A stretch of 19,197 nucleotides of DNA from a virus. Taxonomy: Duplodnaviria; Heunggongvirae; Uroviricota; Caudoviricetes. Within the stretch, counting starts at the first letter, position 1. The number at the start of each line of letters is the position of its first letter. Location of the stretch: positions 1-19,197 of IMG/VR virus record IMGVR_UViG_2667527789_000020; one strand, 5' to 3'. Below, one piece after another: positions 1,307 through 7,942 of this stretch. The position numbers and the translations under genes are program-made. Below the pieces are notes generated by a model that searched no databases, had not been told where the DNA came from, and saw only the letters and a list, made by a program, of their open reading frames with translations.

Positions 1307-3745
1307 TTAAAAATCAGCCTGATTCGGGAACAGTTTTTGCCAGATAGCTGAAACGTATTTTGCCTGGTAACGCGCATCGTGCAGGGCATTATGGCGTTCA
1401 CCCTCAAATGTGATGACACTTCGAGCATCGAAATCCATCACCAGCCCCAGGGCAACAATCGTTCTTACATCACGATCATTGGTGTAACGCCACGGGCAGG
1501 GGATCTCCTGCCGTTCATATGAACGGCGTAAAATCACGTTGTCGAAGTTGGCTCCATTTCCCCAGACCTGAACAAAAAACTCACCGGAGTTTTCGTCTAT
1601 AAATTCCCGTAATTGTAAAAGCGCATCATCAAGCGGTATTCGATCAGCTAAAATGGCGGCACGGGCTTCGCCAGAGCGTTGAAGCCACCATTCGATGGTG
1701 CTTATGTCTACAGTGCCGCCACATGTACCCATATCAATTATTTTGCTGAATTCAGGCCCCTGCTCTCCGGTTTGTGGATCGAAAAATACAGCGCCTATTG
1801 AGGCTATTGGTGCGTCAGGATTTTTGCCCATTGTTTCAAGGTCAATCATCAGATGGTGCCACAACCTGCTGGTGGATGTGATTTCACGATGACCGTTCAC
1901 CTTAATTAAGGGATTTGCTGTCTCGCCTGTTTCATTATTGCCATTGGCATGTTGATCGCCTTCGGTGCACTCCTTGTTCGGGAGTCCGGCACTTTCCATT
2001 TCCTCCGGATCTTTTTCCCGGGCTTCATCCTGGCTTTCTTCGTTGAATGTCTCCTGGTAGGTTGCGTCCCCCATCACTGCGCCACAATCAGGGCAGTTAC
2101 CACCACCAGTCTGATTGCATGCGGTACAAACTTTTTCCTCTTCCTGTTGCACTACTGGTTCAGGTTGTTTCGTTTCTGGCTCGTTTTGTAACGCATTTGG
2201 GCTGTTTTGTTCCGCTTTCTGACCGTTCTGTTCCGTTTCTTGCTGGTTCTGGTTCACAGAATCGCAGGTTTCAATCCCCTTAACCCATTTCGAATCATTC
2301 GGGTCGCTAATCCCTTCAACAAACTCACCACGAGAAGCGGCAAGCAATTTGTCGGCATCTGGTCGACTGATGTCTGCTGCCTCCATAATTTTATTTACTT
2401 CTTCAGCAGTAACTTTTACCTGTGACTTGTCATCCAGCGGCTGCGGGTCCTGATGATGTTCAACTGTATCCGCTGCCATTGTTTCAGCCGTTGCCTGTTC
2501 ATCTGCCATTGCGCCAGATGGTTGCGGGTTTTCTTCATCATTTTTTTCTTCTTCTGTTTTGCACTCAGCAGCCAGTCCGCCGTTAATTTCTTCCAGGATA
2601 TCTTTTTCCGGTGTATGCCGGGCAGCCATGAGCGTTTCAGCTGTGGGATTCTCGTGATCAGTTTCTGTCAGGTTGGCATTGATATACCCCTGAAGGCGTC
2701 CCGGGTAGTGATAAAACTCAGGGTGGGCGCTCCGGATAAGTGCAAAAATAGCTGCGCGGGAATAGTCCAGGATACCAGGGGTTGCGCGAAGTGCTGCGGA
2801 CCATTCCCTGAACGGACTTTCTTTTTTCAGGACGATTTCTTTTGCGCGACGATAAACGCTCACGGGTATTTCATAAATATTAAAATCCATCGGAAGTGTG
2901 GCTGCTGCAGCCTCCACATCCAGAGTATCGAGGGTGTGTACTAAGTCAGGATTACGATCGGTTTTATTTCCGCCACCGGCATTTGCACCGGAAGCCGTGC
3001 GGGTGATGCGAGAAACACGATTTCCTTTCATCCACTCTTTTGTCAGCAGACCTCGATCGGTATAGTCAGCGTCCAGGTATGCTTCGAAAAAAGCAGTCAT
3101 TAACCCCAGACTGGAATTAACGGGATTAGGGAAAACTTTGTCTGTGTCGCGTACCAGTTTGTGAAGGTCGCGAATCTCCAGCGGGTCGAGCAGCTTTGTG
3201 TTGTGGGAAATAGCCAGGGTAGTAACAGCCGGCAGTTCTTCAGCTCGTGCGATATGTAATGCCTGAAGTTCTTCCCGTGAAACGTGCGTTACCGGTTTTT
3301 CGCTGCCATGTTGCGCAAGCCAGCGAATGGGCAGTTCCTGACCGGAAATCGGCAGGAGCATATTATCCTCAATCTCAGCCATGTCTTCGCCATTGACGTT
3401 GGTATTGTCAGTGCTGGCTGGTTTGTCCTGAACTGAGGGGGAAGGCGCTATAAATATCATTGTGATGCCATCTTCCCCGCCTTTTTCATAGCGGTTGCAG
3501 AATTCGGTATCAAACACGCCTTCCGGTGGAAGGTCATTCACAACGGGGAAATGGACGCGGACAGGTTTTTTGAAATCATCAGCGTCGTAGCCTGCCTCGT
3601 CCATTGCAACAACGCACCGTGAGATGGCAACAGATAATTTTTTTGCTGTAGTCCAGTAAAAACCCCCTTTAATCCCAAGGCGTTTTCTGACCTTGTCATT
3701 TTTTGCTTCGCAATATAGCGAAAATTCTTCTTTATCAGTGCTCAT
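1307..3745 (-). CDS. Large prophage exonuclease (812 aa): RecE-N-terminal-like region, CxxC-x8-CxxC zinc ribbon, C-terminal DEDDh (DnaQ-like) 3'-5' exonuclease domain
   Basis: ATG at 3745 preceded by GAGG with 7-nt spacer. C-terminal domain shows Exo I (MIDLETMG), Exo II (VWGNGANFDNVIL) and Exo III (HNALHDARYQAKY) motifs. Central Cys cluster CTACNQTGGGNCPDCG. N-terminal part (NTNVNGEDM.EIE.NMLLPISGQELPIRWLAQHGSEKPVTHVSR) resembles, from memory, the dispensable N-terminal region of Rac RecE. Confidence 0.8.
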   Translation of the reverse strand: MSTDKEEFSLYCEAKNDKVRKRLGIKGGFYWTTAKKLSVAISRCVVAMDEAGYDADDFKKPVRVHFPVVNDLPPEGVFDTEFCNRYEKGGEDGITMIFIAPSPSVQDKPASTDNTNVNGEDMAEIEDNMLLPISGQELPIRWLAQHGSEKPVTHVSREELQALHIARAEELPAVTTLAISHNTKLLDPLEIRDLHKLVRDTDKVFPNPVNSSLGLMTAFFEAYLDADYTDRGLLTKEWMKGNRVSRITRTASGANAGGGNKTDRNPDLVHTLDTLDVEAAAATLPMDFNIYEIPVSVYRRAKEIVLKKESPFREWSAALRATPGILDYSRAAIFALIRSAHPEFYHYPGRLQGYINANLTETDHENPTAETLMAARHTPEKDILEEINGGLAAECKTEEEKNDEENPQPSGAMADEQATAETMAADTVEHHQDPQPLDDKSQVKVTAEEVNKIMEAADISRPDADKLLAASRGEFVEGISDPNDSKWVKGIETCDSVNQNQQETEQNGQKAEQNSPNALQNEPETKQPEPVVQQEEEKVCTACNQTGGGNCPDCGAVMGDATYQETFNEESQDEAREKDPEEMESAGLPNKECTEGDQHANGNNETGETANPLIKVNGHREITSTSRLWHHLMIDLETMGKNPDAPIASIGAVFFDPQTGEQGPEFSKIIDMGTCGGTVDISTIEWWLQRSGEARAAILADRIPLDDALLQLREFIDENSGEFFVQVWGNGANFDNVILRRSYERQEIPCPWRYTNDRDVRTIVALGLVMDFDARSVITFEGERHNALHDARYQAKYVSAIWQKLFPNQADF

Positions 3746-4221: not shown

Positions 4222-4806
4222 TCAACAATGAATTTTTAGTAATTGCTCCACAGTCATATTTTTAATTGCGCTCCGGTTTACAAGAGTCCAGCCTTGTTTC
4301 TCCAGATAAAACTGGAAGGTATCCAGGGTGCAGACCATTGCACCATCAGGAACGGTTTCAGTGAATTTGATATTGCCGTGTTCGTCGAGACGGATAACCA
4401 GGGTACGTCCGTCCCCGTGAATCATTTTGTCGGGAGACGGGGCGTTATTCTGGCGCAGTTCTTTCTCCATGCGATCGAACTCAGCGATGTAGGCTTCTTT
4501 AAATGCAGCGGCTTTTTTGCCGGTGAAGCCCATCACCAGGAAAACGAAGCCGTTTTTGGTGATTTGGTACATAGGGAGTTTGCGCCCGGTTGAGTCGGTA
4601 TATTCACTGGGCGAAAAATTTCGCTCAGTGAATTCTGCTGAACAGTCTAGACGTGAAATTTTTGCCAGTACATCTTTGTGTGGTTTCCGGAAATACTCGG
4701 CAACAGCTAAAGAGGATGTAACAGCACGCCCATTGGCGATAGTAATTTCAGGGTGAGAAAGGGCAGGGATAGTAGCCATGATGGCAGCCTCCATGATGAA
4801 TTTCAT
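4222..4806 (-). CDS. Rha-family phage regulatory protein (antirepressor-like)
   Basis: Core ITIANGRAVTSSLAVAEYFRKPHKDVLAKISRL...MYQITKNGFVFLVMGFTGKKAAAFKEAYIAEF is typical of the Phage_pRha domain. The six-frame ORF extends to 5073 but the first ~90 codons are compositionally non-protein-like and contain a terminator-like hairpin. Likely start is ATG at 4806 (SD-like GGTGGTGAG upstream) or ATG at 4779 (GGAGG, 8-nt spacer). Confidence 0.7.
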   Translation of the reverse strand: MKFIMEAAIMATIPALSHPEITIANGRAVTSSLAVAEYFRKPHKDVLAKISRLDCSAEFTERNFSPSEYTDSTGRKLPMYQITKNGFVFLVMGFTGKKAAAFKEAYIAEFDRMEKELRQNNAPSPDKMIHGDGRTLVIRLDEHGNIKFTETVPDGAMVCTLDTFQFYLEKQGWTLVNRSAIKNMTVEQLLKIHC

Positions 4807-4943
4807 TAACTCACCACCGGAGGTAGCAATCTCATGGGTGGTGAGACGCACAGGGTTGCTACAACCGGTCATCATGGAACCCGGCCAGCCTTGCGGCTGC
4901 CCTGCACGCCCCACCATAATCTGAATGTGGCTGTGCATTACGC

Positions 4944-4968
4944 ATAAAAAAACCGCCTGAGCGCGGTT
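4944..4968 (-). terminator. Candidate Rho-independent terminator on the minus strand
   Basis: Minus-strand RNA would form AACCGC / GCGGTT stem (6 bp, 6-nt loop) followed by a 7-U run (plus-strand A7 at 4946-4952). Lies between the DicF-like element and the Rha start. Confidence 0.4.
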
Positions 4969-5264
4969 ATGCGCCATGATGAACATCGGGGTAGCAATCC
5001 CGGCACCCGCTTTATGAGGTGCAGGTGCACTATAATTCCACCCGTTCTGGTTTTCAATAGCTACATTCAACATTTTCTCTTACCTTTCATCACCGAAGTG
5101 AACTTTGTCGATGCAGTGCCTGGTGCCTCCAGGTGACGTTAACCAGTTAACAATTAACGCCGGAATACAGAAGTATGCCCGTTACGCCCCGTAAAAGACC
5201 ACTTTACGGTTTTAACTGTTCCGCGTGCGCTTAGCCGCATTCACCGCATCACAAAATTCACTTT

Positions 5265-5322
5265 AAAAAGGGCGGACATCAGAAAGCTAATAAACTGATG
5301 CCGCCAAAGGTACCACTGCCAT
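5265..5322 (-). ncRNA. dicF: DicF-like small RNA candidate with intrinsic terminator
   Basis: Minus-strand transcript ...ACCUUUGGCGGCAUCAG-UUUAUUAGCUUU-CUGAUGUCCGCC-CUUUUU: an 11-bp GC-rich stem (one bulge), 12-nt loop and U5 tail. The UUUGGCGG.AUCAGUUU and CCGCCCUUUUU segments resemble E. coli DicF as I recall it. Lies in the same operon and upstream of the dicB homolog, as in Qin. The 5' end is not defined. Confidence 0.45.
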
Positions 5323-5743: not shown

Positions 5744-5923
5744 GTTGACCTCATTTCCCCTTAACGCCGGGGTAGCGGAACAAAAAACCTGCTGCATAGT
5801 TAAACGTAATCCCCGCCGTCATGTTCATACGCCTCAGGCTGGCTACTTAACCCCTGACCACTGCCGGGTAACTCGAAGTATTGCCCTGCGTTCTGTGGGG
5901 CGGGGTGGGTTTATGGATACAAT

Positions 5924-6006
5924 TTACAAATTAAAATTTAACTGGTCAACATGTTTATTATTAAATTTGTAATTGCGAGCTGTTGCATTAGTCCCAAAAT
6001 GGGACT
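5924..6006. promoter_or_regulatory. Candidate operator/promoter region (OL-like, divergent leftward promoter and higBA promoter)
   Basis: AT-rich. Inverted repeat TTACAAATT (5924-5932) / AATTTGTAA (5964-5972), and a second perfect palindrome AGTCCCA-aaa-TGGGACT (5990-6006) immediately upstream of higB. The TTACAAAT half-site recurs in the repressor/cro intergenic region. Confidence 0.4.
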
Positions 6007-6017
6007 ACTATACAGTT

Positions 6018-6320
6018 ATGAAGATTATCTCAGTTAAAACACTCAGGGATTTTTGGGCGGAGAATCCTGATGCAGAACAACCGCTAAGGGCATGGGTGGA
6101 TGAGGCGGCAAAAGCTGACTGGAAAAGCCCAGCAGACATTAAGGCACAATACCGAACGGCCAGTATATTGAAAAACCGGCGCGTGGTATTCAACATAAAA
6201 GGTAATCATTACCGTTTAATTGTTGCAATTGCGTATCAGCGAGGATGGGTATTTGTTAAATTCATCGGAAACCACAAGGAATACGATGCTATTGATGCTG
6301 ATACCATCGAACTGGAGTAA
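6018..6320 (+). CDS. higB: Type II toxin HigB (RelE/ParE superfamily mRNA interferase), 100 aa
   Basis: ...VVFNIKGNHYRLIVAIAYQRGWVFVKFIGNHKEYD parallels E. coli HigB (VFNVGGNELRVVAMV...HKEYD). Directly followed by an HTH antitoxin gene 2 bp downstream. The six-frame ORF starts at a TTG at 5973; ATG 6018 is preferred. Confidence 0.85.
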   Translation: MKIISVKTLRDFWAENPDAEQPLRAWVDEAAKADWKSPADIKAQYRTASILKNRRVVFNIKGNHYRLIVAIAYQRGWVFVKFIGNHKEYDAIDADTIELE

Positions 6321-6322
6321 GC

Positions 6323-6682
6323 ATGAACATCAAACCTATTCGTACAGAGCAAGATTATGAAGCCGCGTTGCGTGCTGTTGAACCCATGTTCGACAATGAG
6401 CCCGAAATTGACACGCCTGAGGGGGATTTTTTTGAGGTGATGTGTTTGCTAATAGAGGAATATGAAAAAAAACATTATCCCATTGAGCCACCATCCCCAA
6501 TTGAAGCTATAAGATTTCGCATGGAACAGCAGGGGCTGACTGTGAAAGATTTGGAACCCGCAATTGGGAAAAAAAATCGGGTTTATGAGGTGTTGAATGG
6601 TACCAGAAGCCTTACGTTACCAATGATTCGCCGTCTTCATAATCAATTTGGTATCCCCCTGGAAAGCCTGGTTGGATTATAA
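6323..6682 (+). CDS. higA: Antitoxin HigA (XRE-family HTH), 119 aa
   Basis: Acidic N-terminal part and C-terminal HTH (LTVKDLEPAIGKKNRVYEVLNGTRSLTLPMIRRLHNQFGIPLESLV). Toxin-first gene order with a 2-bp spacing is typical of higBA. Confidence 0.85.
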   Translation: MNIKPIRTEQDYEAALRAVEPMFDNEPEIDTPEGDFFEVMCLLIEEYEKKHYPIEPPSPIEAIRFRMEQQGLTVKDLEPAIGKKNRVYEVLNGTRSLTLPMIRRLHNQFGIPLESLVGL

Positions 6683-6697
6683 AATCTGCTAGTCATT

Positions 6698-6746
6698 TGC
6701 CTGATGCTCGTTCCAGAAAAGGAATGCATCAGGCAGTTTTGTTTTT
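6698..6746 (+). terminator. Rho-independent terminator after higA (convergent with the repressor 3' end)
   Basis: TGCCTGATGC (6698-6707) pairs with GCATCAGGCA (6726-6735), with an inner TTCC/GGAA stem, followed by GTTTTGTTTTT. Overlaps the stop codon of the minus-strand repressor gene. Confidence 0.6.
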
Positions 6747-7121
6747 CTGCCGCAGTAACTCTTCAAGTTTCCGTTTATAGAAATCGCGTTTTTGCTCCAT
6801 ATCACGAATGATCTGCTCTGCGTCGCTTTGAGGTAACTCATCTAAAAGCGATATGATTTTTCGTTGTTGTTCTGTAAGTTGCGGTTGGTTGTCATTACTG
6901 GATACAGCCATTTTATCGCCGAGAGTTTCTTCTTCCATAAAGAACCAATGGACGGGATGTTGTGAGAGCTCTGCTAATTTTTCCAGTTTATCCATTCTTG
7001 GCATCACGCCTTTCAACCAACCTTGCACGGATTGGGGTTTTACACCAAGACGTCTTCCCAGCTCTGACTGGTTTATATTCAATTCCTGCAACACCTGCTG
7101 AAGGCGTTTTACAAAGATCAT
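6729..7121 (-). CDS. DicA-like prophage repressor (N-terminal XRE HTH, C-terminal coiled-coil), 130 aa
   Basis: HTH LQQVLQELNINQSELGRRLGVKPQSVQGWLKG, then a charged helical tail (EQQRKIISLLDELPQSDAEQIIRDMEQKRDFYKRKLEELLRQ) with the same architecture as DicA. No S24 peptidase domain. ATG at 7121 preferred (GAGGGG, 5-nt spacer) over the in-frame GTG at 7127. Divergent from the cro-like gene. Confidence 0.8.
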   Translation of the reverse strand: MIFVKRLQQVLQELNINQSELGRRLGVKPQSVQGWLKGVMPRMDKLEKLAELSQHPVHWFFMEEETLGDKMAVSSNDNQPQLTEQQRKIISLLDELPQSDAEQIIRDMEQKRDFYKRKLEELLRQKNKTA

Positions 7122-7176
7122 CACCACCCCTCGTAAACTAGTTCCGCGATCCTACAGAAAAAATTGATAAGTGGCA

Positions 7177-7214
7177 TTACAAATAGAAGTTGAAATTTAA
7201 ATTTAAATTTGTAA
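7177..7214. promoter_or_regulatory. Candidate operator (OR-like) in the repressor/cro divergent promoter region
   Basis: Inverted repeat TTACAAAT (7177-7184) / ATTTGTAA (7207-7214) flanking three tandem AAATTT units. Lies in the 126-bp intergenic space between the repressor start and the ydaS-like start. Confidence 0.4.
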
Positions 7215-7247
7215 TCATCGGTGTCATCGTAAAGTTCGGAGGGAAAC

Positions 7248-7508
7248 ATGCAAAAAAGTACTCAAGTGAAAATCCTGTCAATAATGAGCCAATCAGAATT
7301 AGGGCGTCGTCTTGGTAAAACACCGCAAACCATAAGTGGGTGGTTTAAAAAACGAGTGCCAGCGGAGGAGGTTATACCAGCATGTGAGGCGCTTGACTGG
7401 GGAGTAACTCCGCATGAATTGCGCCCTGATAAATACCCTAATCCAACCGATGGTTTACCTGTTGAGTATCAGGCTAACGCACAAGCAGCGGCGGGAGTTG
7501 ATTCATGA
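7248..7508 (+). CDS. ydaS: Cro-like HTH protein, YdaS family (86 aa)
   Basis: SQSELGRRLGKTPQTISGWFKKRVPAEEVIPACEALDWGVTPHELRPDKYP matches the YdaS/Cro-like pattern (LG.TPQ..S.W...VPAE.V...E......HELRPD.YP). ATG preceded by GGAGGG. Divergent from the repressor. Confidence 0.7.
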   Translation: MQKSTQVKILSIMSQSELGRRLGKTPQTISGWFKKRVPAEEVIPACEALDWGVTPHELRPDKYPNPTDGLPVEYQANAQAAAGVDS

Positions 7509-7942
7509 AAATCAAGCATGAGCACATCCGCATGGCGATGAATGCGTGGCTGCTTTATCCGAGGGTAGGGCGCAAAAAAATCGCTGATGATATAGCGACA
7601 GCATATTTTGAGCTTGAAATGACTTATCCACCAATGCATGACACCTCTACGACAGAGGGTATTGGATTGAATATACAAAATATTTTTCGCTGGCTTGAAA
7701 AGGATACGCCTGATGCTGTTGAAAAAATTCAGGCACTAATTCCGGCTATCCTGACTGTTCTTCCGCGTGAACTGCGTTATCACCTCAGTATTTTTGACAC
7801 TGTTGAGCGCCGTGCATTACTGGCGGCGCAGGAAGCGTTGAGCACGGCAATTGATGCACATGATGATGCTGTCCAGGCCGTTTACCGGAAAGCGTATTTC
7901 AGCGACGGCGGGTCATCCGGCGAGTCTGTTGTGGTGCATTGA
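7505..7942 (+). CDS. ydaT: YdaT-family protein (CII-like regulator / putative toxin YdaT), 145 aa
   Basis: Begins MKIKHEHI; C-terminal LIPAILTVLPRELRYHLSIFDTVERRALLAAQEALSTAIDAHDDAVQAVYRKAYFSDGGSSGESVVVH matches Rac YdaT as I recall it. ATGA overlap with the ydaS-like stop. Confidence 0.7.
   Translation: MKIKHEHIRMAMNAWLLYPRVGRKKIADDIATAYFELEMTYPPMHDTSTTEGIGLNIQNIFRWLEKDTPDAVEKIQALIPAILTVLPRELRYHLSIFDTVERRALLAAQEALSTAIDAHDDAVQAVYRKAYFSDGGSSGESVVVH

Follow-up and report, generated by a model that had tools for sequence, protein, structure and literature searches.

Candidate repressor and Cro operators in the OR-like and OL-like regions of a lambdoid prophage

The DNA analysed in this study (the window, the whole stretch of 19,197 bp) is a lambdoid prophage of the Rac/Qin/CP-933P type, as judged from its gene content and from Pfam and PHROG assignments. 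Its immunity region contains an HTH_3 repressor gene on the minus strand (6729-7121, 130 aa) and, 126 bp away, a divergent Cro-like gene of the YdaS family on the plus strand (7248-7508). The latter is followed by the YdaT gene (7505-7942, plus strand), with a DnaT-like replication gene to the right of it. On the other side of the repressor gene, the gene list places higB (6018-6320) and higA (6323-6682) on the plus strand. The higBA genes are convergent with the repressor gene on the opposite strand, and the three-gene toxin-antitoxin-repressor operon arrangement is not present. Farther left, a ydfA-like DUF1391 gene ending at 5797, a Rha/Ash gene (4222-5073) and the RecE gene (1307-3745) are all on the minus strand.

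The repressor has an N-terminal HTH_3 domain (Pfam) and a helical C-terminal part, and PHROG assigned it to transcriptional regulator or repressor families. The RecA-cleavable S24 peptidase domain was not found in it by Pfam. It was 31% identical to PaaR2 of CP-933P (E 2e-21), 22% identical to DicA and 23% identical to RacR. A protein search of sequenced phages found no repressor more than 40% identical in that collection, and a PDB sequence search returned a weak HTH match to 2kpj alone and no structural template. The Cro-like protein matched Pfam YdaS_toxin and HTH_3, was 51% identical to YdaS of CP-933P (E 1e-29) and had a weak, sub-threshold Pfam match to Phage_CI_repr (17.9 vs 22 bits). 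The HTH regions of the repressor and Cro were identical at 15 of 26 positions, both reading QSELGRRLG..PQ(S/T)(V/I).GW, and the Cro motif was conserved across the Cro proteins of relatives. Such near-identity is expected if both proteins read the same operators. The recognition helix PQSVQGW was invariant in 19 repressor homologues, and there was therefore no protein-DNA co-variation to exploit. YdaT carried the Pfam YdaT_toxin domain and was CII-like in PHROG. A perfect YdaT box, TTGATT-N6-AATCAA, was found at 7498-7515, at the ydaS/ydaT junction, and it is the only one in the window.

Two regulatory regions of the window contain inverted pairs of the same 8-mer, TTACAAAT. In the repressor/cro intergenic region, one copy is on the plus strand at 7177-7184 and a second is on the minus strand at 7207-7214, where the plus strand reads ATTTGTAA. 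The original prediction, that inverted repeats here flank three tandem AAATTT units, was borne out, with the units at 7193-7210 between the TTACAAAT and ATTTGTAA arms as read from the sequence. It had also claimed that the half-sites recur at 5924-5972, upstream of the leftward operon, and they do so as TTACAAATT at 5924-5932 (left arm of the second pair) and AATTTGTAA at 5964-5972 (right arm). A motif search across the whole window found TTACAAAT four times only, as two inverted pairs (7177/7207 and 5924/5965), all in these two regions. Dinucleotide shuffling gave a mean of 0.91 copies per window and at least four copies in 2 of 200 shuffles. We also used a local AT-rich model, a first-order Markov model trained on both motif regions (194 bp, 31% GC). 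This model gave 0.048 copies on average, and four copies were not attained once in 200,000 simulations (P(>=4) < 5e-6). About ten other AT-rich stretches of the window (100-bp windows, <38% GC) contained no copy of TTACAAAT. The four copies are far beyond chance, even by the AT-rich local model. The likeness also extended beyond the 8-mer, as 5924-5941 and the reverse complement of 7197-7214 have 17 of 18 positions in common (an 18-nt repeat with 94% identity). Rfam gave no match in either regulatory region.

We compared ten related prophages from E. coli, Salmonella, Serratia, Sodalis and Arsenophonus, with repressors 49-96% identical to that of the window; all of them had the layout seen here. 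The loci came from E. coli (L001, L004 and L005, repressor 96-89% identical), Salmonella (L006, 74%; L008, 71%; L010, 72%), metagenomes (L032, 74%; L029, 64%), Sodalis (L026, 71%), Serratia (L030, 58%), and Arsenophonus and Phlomobacter (L012-L016, 49-54%). In all collected loci the repressor gene was divergent from ydaS-ydaT. An 8-nt half-site matrix was trained on the OR operators of relatives with a repressor identity of at most 74%, with the window and its close kin excluded. When the window was scanned for 17-mers with this matrix, scores of 18.2 bits were obtained at 7197 and 5925, 15.8 bits at 7178, 13.1 bits at 7153 and 11.8 bits at 5955, and the first three were the best 17-mers in the window. 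An unrelated site at 1058 (13.9 bits) outranked 7153, and an overlapping OR register at 7191 (13.1 bits) tied with it. The four top half-sites of the matrix in the window were exactly the four sites of the original prediction. Matches of at least 18.2 bits are expected by chance 0.013 times per random window, with P = 0.0008 per 74 bp under the local AT-rich model.

The candidate binding unit is likely a 17-bp pseudo-palindrome, T(A/G)CA-N9-TG(T/C)A (TRCA-N9-TGYA), with three sites in OR and two in OL. O-c (OR1-like, TTAAATTTAAATTTGTA) occupies 7197-7213 and scored 18.2 bits; its strong right half is the ATTTGTAA copy at 7207-7214, and its weak AT-rich left half lies inside the AAATTT repeats. 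O-b (OR2-like, TACAAATAGAAGTTGAA) occupies 7178-7194 with 15.8 bits and takes its strong left half from the TTACAAAT copy at 7177-7184. O-a (OR3-like, TACAGAAAAAATTGATA; 7153-7169, 13.1 bits) lies outside the motif first described. It has a canonical left half, and in E. coli and Salmonella members its right half has decayed to TTGATA. The centres of the three sites are spaced by 25 and 19 bp.

Fourteen OR regions were aligned, and four invariant blocks were found: TACA at 7153-7156, CA.T.CAA.T at 7175-7184, TTG at 7190-7192 and AT.TG.AAT at 7207-7215. The sequence around these blocks diverges; the aligned regions are orthologous, and part of the conservation is shared ancestry. At O-c, ATnTGTAAT was nearly invariant across the 14 loci, and the full palindrome TACAAATTAAATATGTA was present in L029. 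At O-b, CAyTrCAAwT and TTG were invariant or almost so, and the full TGCA-N9-TGCA was present in L006, L026 and L032. The TACA of O-a was invariant in the 14 loci; its site was a near-perfect palindrome in L026, L029 and L032 and a perfect 17-bp palindrome, TACAGAAATTTTCTGTA, in Serratia L030. For every OR operator, at least one relative thus carries the full TRCA-N9-TGYA palindrome. In the window itself all five 17-mers are incomplete as palindromes: one half is canonical, and the other is weak, AT-rich or diverged. A search for TACA-N9-TGTA with at most one mismatch retrieved O-b as the sole operator.

The long palindromes of the original prediction are likely the strong outer half-sites of neighbouring 17-bp operators, and the AAATTT repeats are likely the weak inner half of the PR-proximal operator together with the PR spacer. 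In relatives, the stretch homologous to the AAATTT units was AT-rich with no strict repeat (TTTAAAATTAAAT, TTTATGTTTTTAT). The operator-like character predicted for the region was supported in this way, and the likely unit became a 17-bp dyad, palindromic in relatives, in place of a long palindrome of 38 or 49 bp. A 21-bp operator model, ATTRCAAAT-N3-ATTTGYAAT, describes the same dyad with longer arms and was dropped for the 17-bp unit because its outer bases vary. We also considered whether TTGATA, conserved at 7164-7169, could be half of a YdaT site, which was unconvincing, as the partner half matched at 3 of 6 positions.

A consensus scan placed a putative promoter for cro/ydaS, PR, at 7190-7218 on the plus strand. 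Its -35 is TTGAAA (7190-7195), in which TTG is invariant across relatives, and its -10 is either TAATCA at 7212-7217 with a 16-nt spacer or AATCAT at 7213-7218 with a 17-nt spacer; its predicted start is near 7224. O-c lies within the PR spacer and covers the first two bases of the -10, and the right half of O-b occupies the same place as the PR -35. A putative PRM-like repressor promoter was read directly from the sequence at 7149-7177 on the minus strand, with the -10 TAGGAT (7154-7149) and the weak -35 ATGCCA (7177-7172); at 8 of 12 consensus positions it was below the scan threshold. TAGTAT, TAGAAT or TAGGAT stands at its -10 position in relatives. O-a covers this putative -10, and the centre of O-b is ~44 bp upstream of the predicted repressor-promoter start, near 7142. 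The repressor ATG is preceded by the Shine-Dalgarno sequence GAGGGG and the predicted start is ~20 nt upstream; the repressor mRNA is probably leadered.

The second pair of sites accompanies a putative leftward promoter, PL, at 5921-5949 on the minus strand, with the -35 TTGACC (5949-5944), a 17-nt spacer and the -10 TAAATT (5926-5921) by consensus scan. OL1 (TACAAATTAAAATTTAA, 5925-5941) scored 18.2 bits, joint best with O-c, and agrees with O-c, taken as its reverse complement, at 16 of 17 positions. Placed within the PL spacer, it covers the first two bases of the PL -10 and is conserved as TTAAATTTTAATTTGTA in seven lineages. OL2 (TTATTATTAAATTTGTA, 5955-5971) scored 11.8 bits as a 17-mer. 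Its strong half, AATTTGTAA at 5964-5972, scored 11.9 bits, the equal best half-site in the window. Distances of 5 and 12 bp separate OL2 from the -35 elements of PL and higB, respectively, both of which lie downstream of it, and AATTACAAAT is kept at its position in relatives without higBA. In relatives with a long enough flank, the best matches outside OR were the same pair of sites downstream of the repressor gene. The layout there was AATTACAAAT, ~21 bp, TTGAC(C/A/T), a 17-nt spacer with TTAAATTTTAATTTG, and TA(G/A)ATT. The pattern TTGACn-17-TAGATT/TAAATT was conserved in all relatives where OL was recovered, and the site pair flanking TTGACn-17-TA(G/A)ATT was found in seven lineages, most of them without higBA. 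This layout is that of a good sigma-70 promoter toward the leftward operon, with one operator in the spacer/-10 and another just upstream of the -35. OL was not recovered within the 4-kb flank of Salmonella L008 and L010; the best matches there, at 7573 and 8339, had no PL architecture. These matches look like the operator of another element, and OL presumably lies beyond the 4-kb flank. The claim that the OR-like and OL-like regions have a half-site in common was therefore supported by the matrix from distant relatives, by the pairs at PL in seven lineages and by the homologous position of PL933P in CP-933P.

We consider it quite probable that these motifs are the repressor/Cro operators of OR and OL in a lambda-like prophage. 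A functional unit of another kind would be a long inverted repeat, in which each strong half-site is contacted by one domain of a tetramer or octamer and the AT-rich DNA is bent or wrapped. This is unlikely, although several features agree with it. Only the outer halves are canonical in the window, the arms are separated by 22 bp at OR and by 33 bp at OL (a difference of 11 bp, about one helical turn), and the intervening DNA is AT-rich with a conserved composition. PaaR2 also forms octamers in solution, and the DNA that it protects runs unbroken for ~78 bp (PMC8630535). However, the inner halves of relatives are canonical in the exact 17-bp register (O-c in L029; O-b in L006, L026 and L032), and O-a stands free as a perfect 17-bp palindrome in L030. 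Dyads of 17 bp are also the usual geometry for dimeric HTH_3 repressors. For the operator reading with 17-bp units, the strong half-sites of a pair measure 36 bp from outer edge to outer edge at OR and 47-49 bp at OL; the difference of about one helical turn fits cooperative binding of two dimers on one DNA face. It is also conceivable, though rather doubtful, that the design with one strong half and the helical phasing arise because a repressor oligomer of higher order wraps the DNA.

In all three promoters, the TA of a TGTA half-site forms the first two bases of the -10: ATTTG|TAAATT at PL, ATTTG|TAATCA at PR and TTCTG|TAGGAT at the repressor promoter. Any protein that occupies OL1, O-c or O-a would thus keep RNA polymerase off the promoter. 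This overlap at three of the five sites, together with the AT-rich composition of the regions (31-36% GC), could also mean that the motifs are promoter or architectural DNA conserved with the promoters, such as -10-like elements, curved AT-rich DNA or targets of H-NS, IHF, Fis or YdaT. In Rac, the racR-ydaS intergenic region is a YdaT target too (PMC11879457), and TATCAATTTTTTC on the minus strand at 7157-7169 resembles an IHF site in our own reading. We find this account very unlikely, as the invariant positions are the G/C-containing TACA/TGTA cores and not A/T tracts, and other AT-rich stretches of the window are without the motif. O-b (S3) and OL2 overlap no predicted -10, and their conservation is thus not explicable by RNA polymerase contacts. 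The YdaT sequence TTGATT-N6-AATCAA is different and has its single copy elsewhere. The conserved TGTAAT was considered as an extended -10 and rejected, since its TG directly abuts the hexamer, which is out of register, and the two sites just named have no -10 overlap.

The region 5924-5972 had been described as upstream of both the leftward operon and higB. In our reading it serves PL, and higB has a separate putative rightward promoter, read from the sequence, with TTGCAT at 5984, a 17-nt spacer and TACTAT at 6006-6011. The spacer of this promoter is filled by another palindrome, TAGTCCCAAAATGGGACTA / TAGTCCCAaaaTGGGACTA at 5990-6008, of the form GTCCCA-N3/4-TGGGAC. This palindrome was common to all higBA copies compared and is likely the HigA operator. 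A reading of the pair at 5924-5972 as the higBA site for HigA/HigBA, including as a HigA autoregulatory operator, with its likeness to OR due to chance, is scarcely credible and was rejected: the pair lies ~45-95 bp upstream of the higB start, 12 bp lie between its right arm and the higB -35, and type II antitoxins usually autoregulate through palindromes, but it is present at PL in eight loci without higBA (L012, L013, L015, L016, L026, L029, L030 and L032), TTACAAAT was not found upstream of plasmid higBA homologues (74-81% DNA identity), and the higBA copies have their other palindrome in the promoter. Since relatives have the pair without higBA and plasmids have higBA without the pair, we assign 5924-5972 to the phage immunity module and regard higBA as inserted cargo. 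The slot between the repressor gene and OL was occupied in relatives by a PLD-family gene, by paaA2 and a TM2 gene, by paaA2-parE2 or by nothing. This slot is thus a place for interchangeable cargo, which may be higBA, paaA2-parE2, a PLD-family gene or nothing.

The prophage switch and higBA may nevertheless be wired together through shared DNA, an idea that we hold only tentatively and regard as rather doubtful. PL and the higB promoter are back-to-back, ~100 bp apart. The centre of OL2 is at ~-55 from the predicted higB start, near 6018, and the spacing between OL2 and the higB -35 is kept in a Salmonella relative. Because of this proximity, the repressor at OL could modulate higBA transcription, or HigA on its site 18 bp away could influence PL. 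If so, toxin-antitoxin expression would be tied to the lysogenic state, unlike the co-transcription in CP-933P.

For the operator reading, we propose that the repressor and the YdaS-family Cro would both recognise 5'-T(A/G)CA(A/G)A(T/A)(T/A)-3' half-sites in 17-bp pseudo-palindromes. O-c would lie in the PR spacer/-10, O-b over the PR -35 and abutting the weak repressor-promoter -35, and O-a over the repressor-promoter -10, with OL1 and OL2 on either side of the PL -35. The prophage would be silenced by repressor that covers PR from O-c/O-b and PL from OL1/OL2. The repressor promoter may be stimulated when O-b, at ~-44, is filled; lambda CI activates PRM from OR2 with the same geometry. A protein on O-a would switch the repressor promoter off, and Cro would use the same sites in another order of preference. 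The analysis shows the sites with their statistics, their conservation and their placement relative to consensus promoters, whereas the identity of the binding protein, the 17-bp unit, cooperativity and activation are what we infer from the DNA and protein sequences. The model provides a testable operator consensus and a promoter map (PR, PRM-like and PL) for an uncharacterised immunity type. It adds to a well-known type of system and is conceptually nothing new for lambdoid phages.

The closest characterised system, by sequence, is PaaR2/YdaS/YdaT of CP-933P and not DicA. In CP-933P of E. coli O157:H7, PaaR2 is the CI analogue, YdaS the Cro analogue and YdaT the CII analogue (Jurenas et al. 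2021, PMC8630535; Prolic-Kalinsek et al. 2023, PMC9986795). Its promoters are PRM933P/PR933P and PL933P; the footprints of PaaR2 and of YdaS extend over the whole intergenic region of 97 bp, both proteins repress PR933P and PL933P, and PRM933P is activated by low PaaR2 levels (PMC8630535). The two prophages have in common a homologous repressor (31%) and Cro (51%) that share their HTH, a YdaT gene with the published box, and one order of genes, in which toxin-antitoxin genes separate the repressor gene from PL and a ydfA-like leftward operon comes next. PL933P is at a position homologous to PL, directly after the conserved GTGGGGCGGGGTGGG leader block. On the CP-933P locus, the two best matches of our matrix were TACAGTTTTTTATTGTA in its OR and TACAATAAAAAACTGTT at PL933P, and its OR and PL carry TACA-N9-TGT(A/T) 17-mers. 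The authors assigned the footprint to four 18-bp repeats with another consensus, GTTTAGTAA (PMC8630535). These results suggest that a 17-bp TACA-N9-TGTA geometry may be common to CP-933P and the family of the window, and this shared geometry could help to re-read the CP-933P footprints.

The operators of the two systems differ in their inner sequence (TACAGTTTT / TACAATAAA vs TACAAATT), and for this reason their immunity specificities are presumably different. The higBA genes of the window are on the opposite strand with their own promoter and operator, whereas CP-933P has a repressor-antitoxin-toxin operon. The repressor mRNA is leaderless there, and GAGGGG and probably a short leader are present here. 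The comparison extends the experimentally studied PaaR2/YdaS/YdaT switch to a sister family.

The original prediction had called the repressor DicA-like. This description fits its architecture and does not fit its specificity, as the identity to DicA is 22% against 31% to PaaR2 and the Qin palindromes, TGTTAG....CTAACA, are unrelated to TACAAAT; operators of the DicA type were rejected on the same grounds. The matrix gave no match at the Qin or Rac operators, and DicC is not a YdaS homologue of the Cro of the window. The likeness to Qin and Rac lies in the N-terminal HTH and C-terminal helix with an LPxS(D/E) motif, in a repressor gene divergent from a cro-like gene and in the ydfA/ydaF-type leftward operon downstream. 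In our own reading, Qin also has a promoter downstream of dicA with an operator-like palindrome in its TTGACC-17-TAATCT spacer.

As in lambda (434 and P22 are similar), the genes are divergent, three related dyad operators lie over PR and the repressor promoter, and the operator type recurs at PL; the function is assigned by analogy. The OR-OL distance is 2.3 kb in lambda and ~1.25 kb here, and the accessory genes between the repressor gene and OL are rexAB there and higBA here. The system differs from lambda in a repressor without the RecA-cleavable S24 domain, in two evident operators at OL, in OR spacings of 25 and 19 bp vs 23-24 bp and in a repressor and Cro that belong to general HTH families (Pfam). 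The 434 operator is ACAA-N6-TTGT; the half-site here also contains ACA, and there is one extra central base pair.

A nucleotide search of sequenced phages matched the conserved PL leader (5808-5911) alone. The DNA to the left of 5912 was common to ~3000 E. coli genomes and several phages, and the DNA to the right of 5912 was present in 148. From this we place the left end of the immunity-specific DNA at 5912, a little way inside the second motif pair. The predicted PL start at ~5914 coincides with this mosaic boundary at 5911/5912. The full repressor-higBA-OL block was found in 148 of 5426 complete E. coli genomes. A scan of species-representative genomes returned relatives in Arsenophonus and Phlomobacter only, together with spurious Bacteroides HTH matches. 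The immunity type is found in prophages of E. coli, Salmonella, Serratia, Sodalis and Arsenophonus, and its carriers include many enterohaemorrhagic-type strains, for example O103:H2 12009 and O111:H11.

The slot between the 3′ end of the repressor gene and the putative leftward operators (OL) is a cargo hotspot, both in the window (6683-6728) and in its relatives L004-L011 and L033. It is occupied by higBA in the window and in L004-L007, by a PLDc_2 gene in the Salmonella locus L008, by paaA2 and a TM2-domain gene in L010, also from Salmonella, and by paaA2-parE2 in the E. coli O157:H7 prophage CP-933P. The slot is empty in the Arsenophonus and Sodalis loci and in the metagenomic locus L029.

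In the window, higBA carries a promoter-like element of its own, TTGCAT-17-TACTAT (5984-6020), and we found that the spacer of this element is filled by a perfect palindrome, TAGTCCCAaaaTGGGACTA (5990-6008), which is kept upstream of the plasmid higBA homologues L002 and L003. Since the predicted transcription start lies on or adjoining the higB ATG (6018), the higB mRNA of the window may be leaderless, whereas a leader is present in the plasmid copies. At 6698-6746, TGCCTGATGC...GCATCAGGCA form an imperfect hairpin whose inner stem is TTCC/GGAA and which is followed by GTTTTGTTTTT. This hairpin is placed between the higA and repressor genes, where the two converge, and overlaps the stop codon of the latter; it probably serves as the terminator of higBA. 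Its long loop is the reason that the terminator scan did not report it.

In the repressor-cro intergenic region, the E. coli and Salmonella members carry a conserved AATTGATA(A/G) in place of the right half of the putative OR3-like operator O-a (7161-7171 in the window), whereas more distant relatives retain the canonical TTCTGTA there. Possible readings of the diverged half are an OR3-like site that has been weakened, an IHF-like TATCAA (minus strand) and a site for some other factor. In the Arsenophonus/Phlomobacter loci (L012-L016), neither the repressor gene nor the OL pair is disrupted. Among them, L013 and L016 carry in-frame stop codons in the cro-like gene, and in L012 and L015 a deletion has removed 7 bp from within operator O-c. 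These loci look like decaying prophages that retain the repressor.

A YdaT-type box, TTGATTCATGAAAATCAA (7498-7515), was assigned on the basis of a perfect match to the published TTGATT-N6-AATCAA, and a search of the window for this motif gave no other match with fewer than two mismatches. The box lies where ydaS stops and ydaT starts, and the ydaT ATG (7505) falls inside its spacer, an arrangement identical to that described for the Rac prophage. The box is probably a CII-like PRE control site.

The predicted leader of the putative leftward promoter PL (5808-5911), about 100 bp long and containing GTGGGGCGGGGTGGG, showed 90-98% conservation across some 3000 E. coli genomes and also in several phages with different immunity regions. 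The conserved block ends exactly at the predicted PL start. An Rfam search of the leader gave no match; a nut-like site and a regulatory leader are both possibilities. Further along the leftward operon, two Rfam matches on the minus strand, to C4 antisense RNA (4834-4921, 77.9 bits) and isrK (4946-5022, 64.7 bits), overlap the Rha/Ash gene in its 5′ part. A sub-threshold DicF-like element on the same strand (5270-5318, 36.4 versus 48 bits) lies just upstream of this part. The region 4834-5318 may constitute a control module of the antirepressor type, similar to Gifsy-1 isrK or P1 immI.
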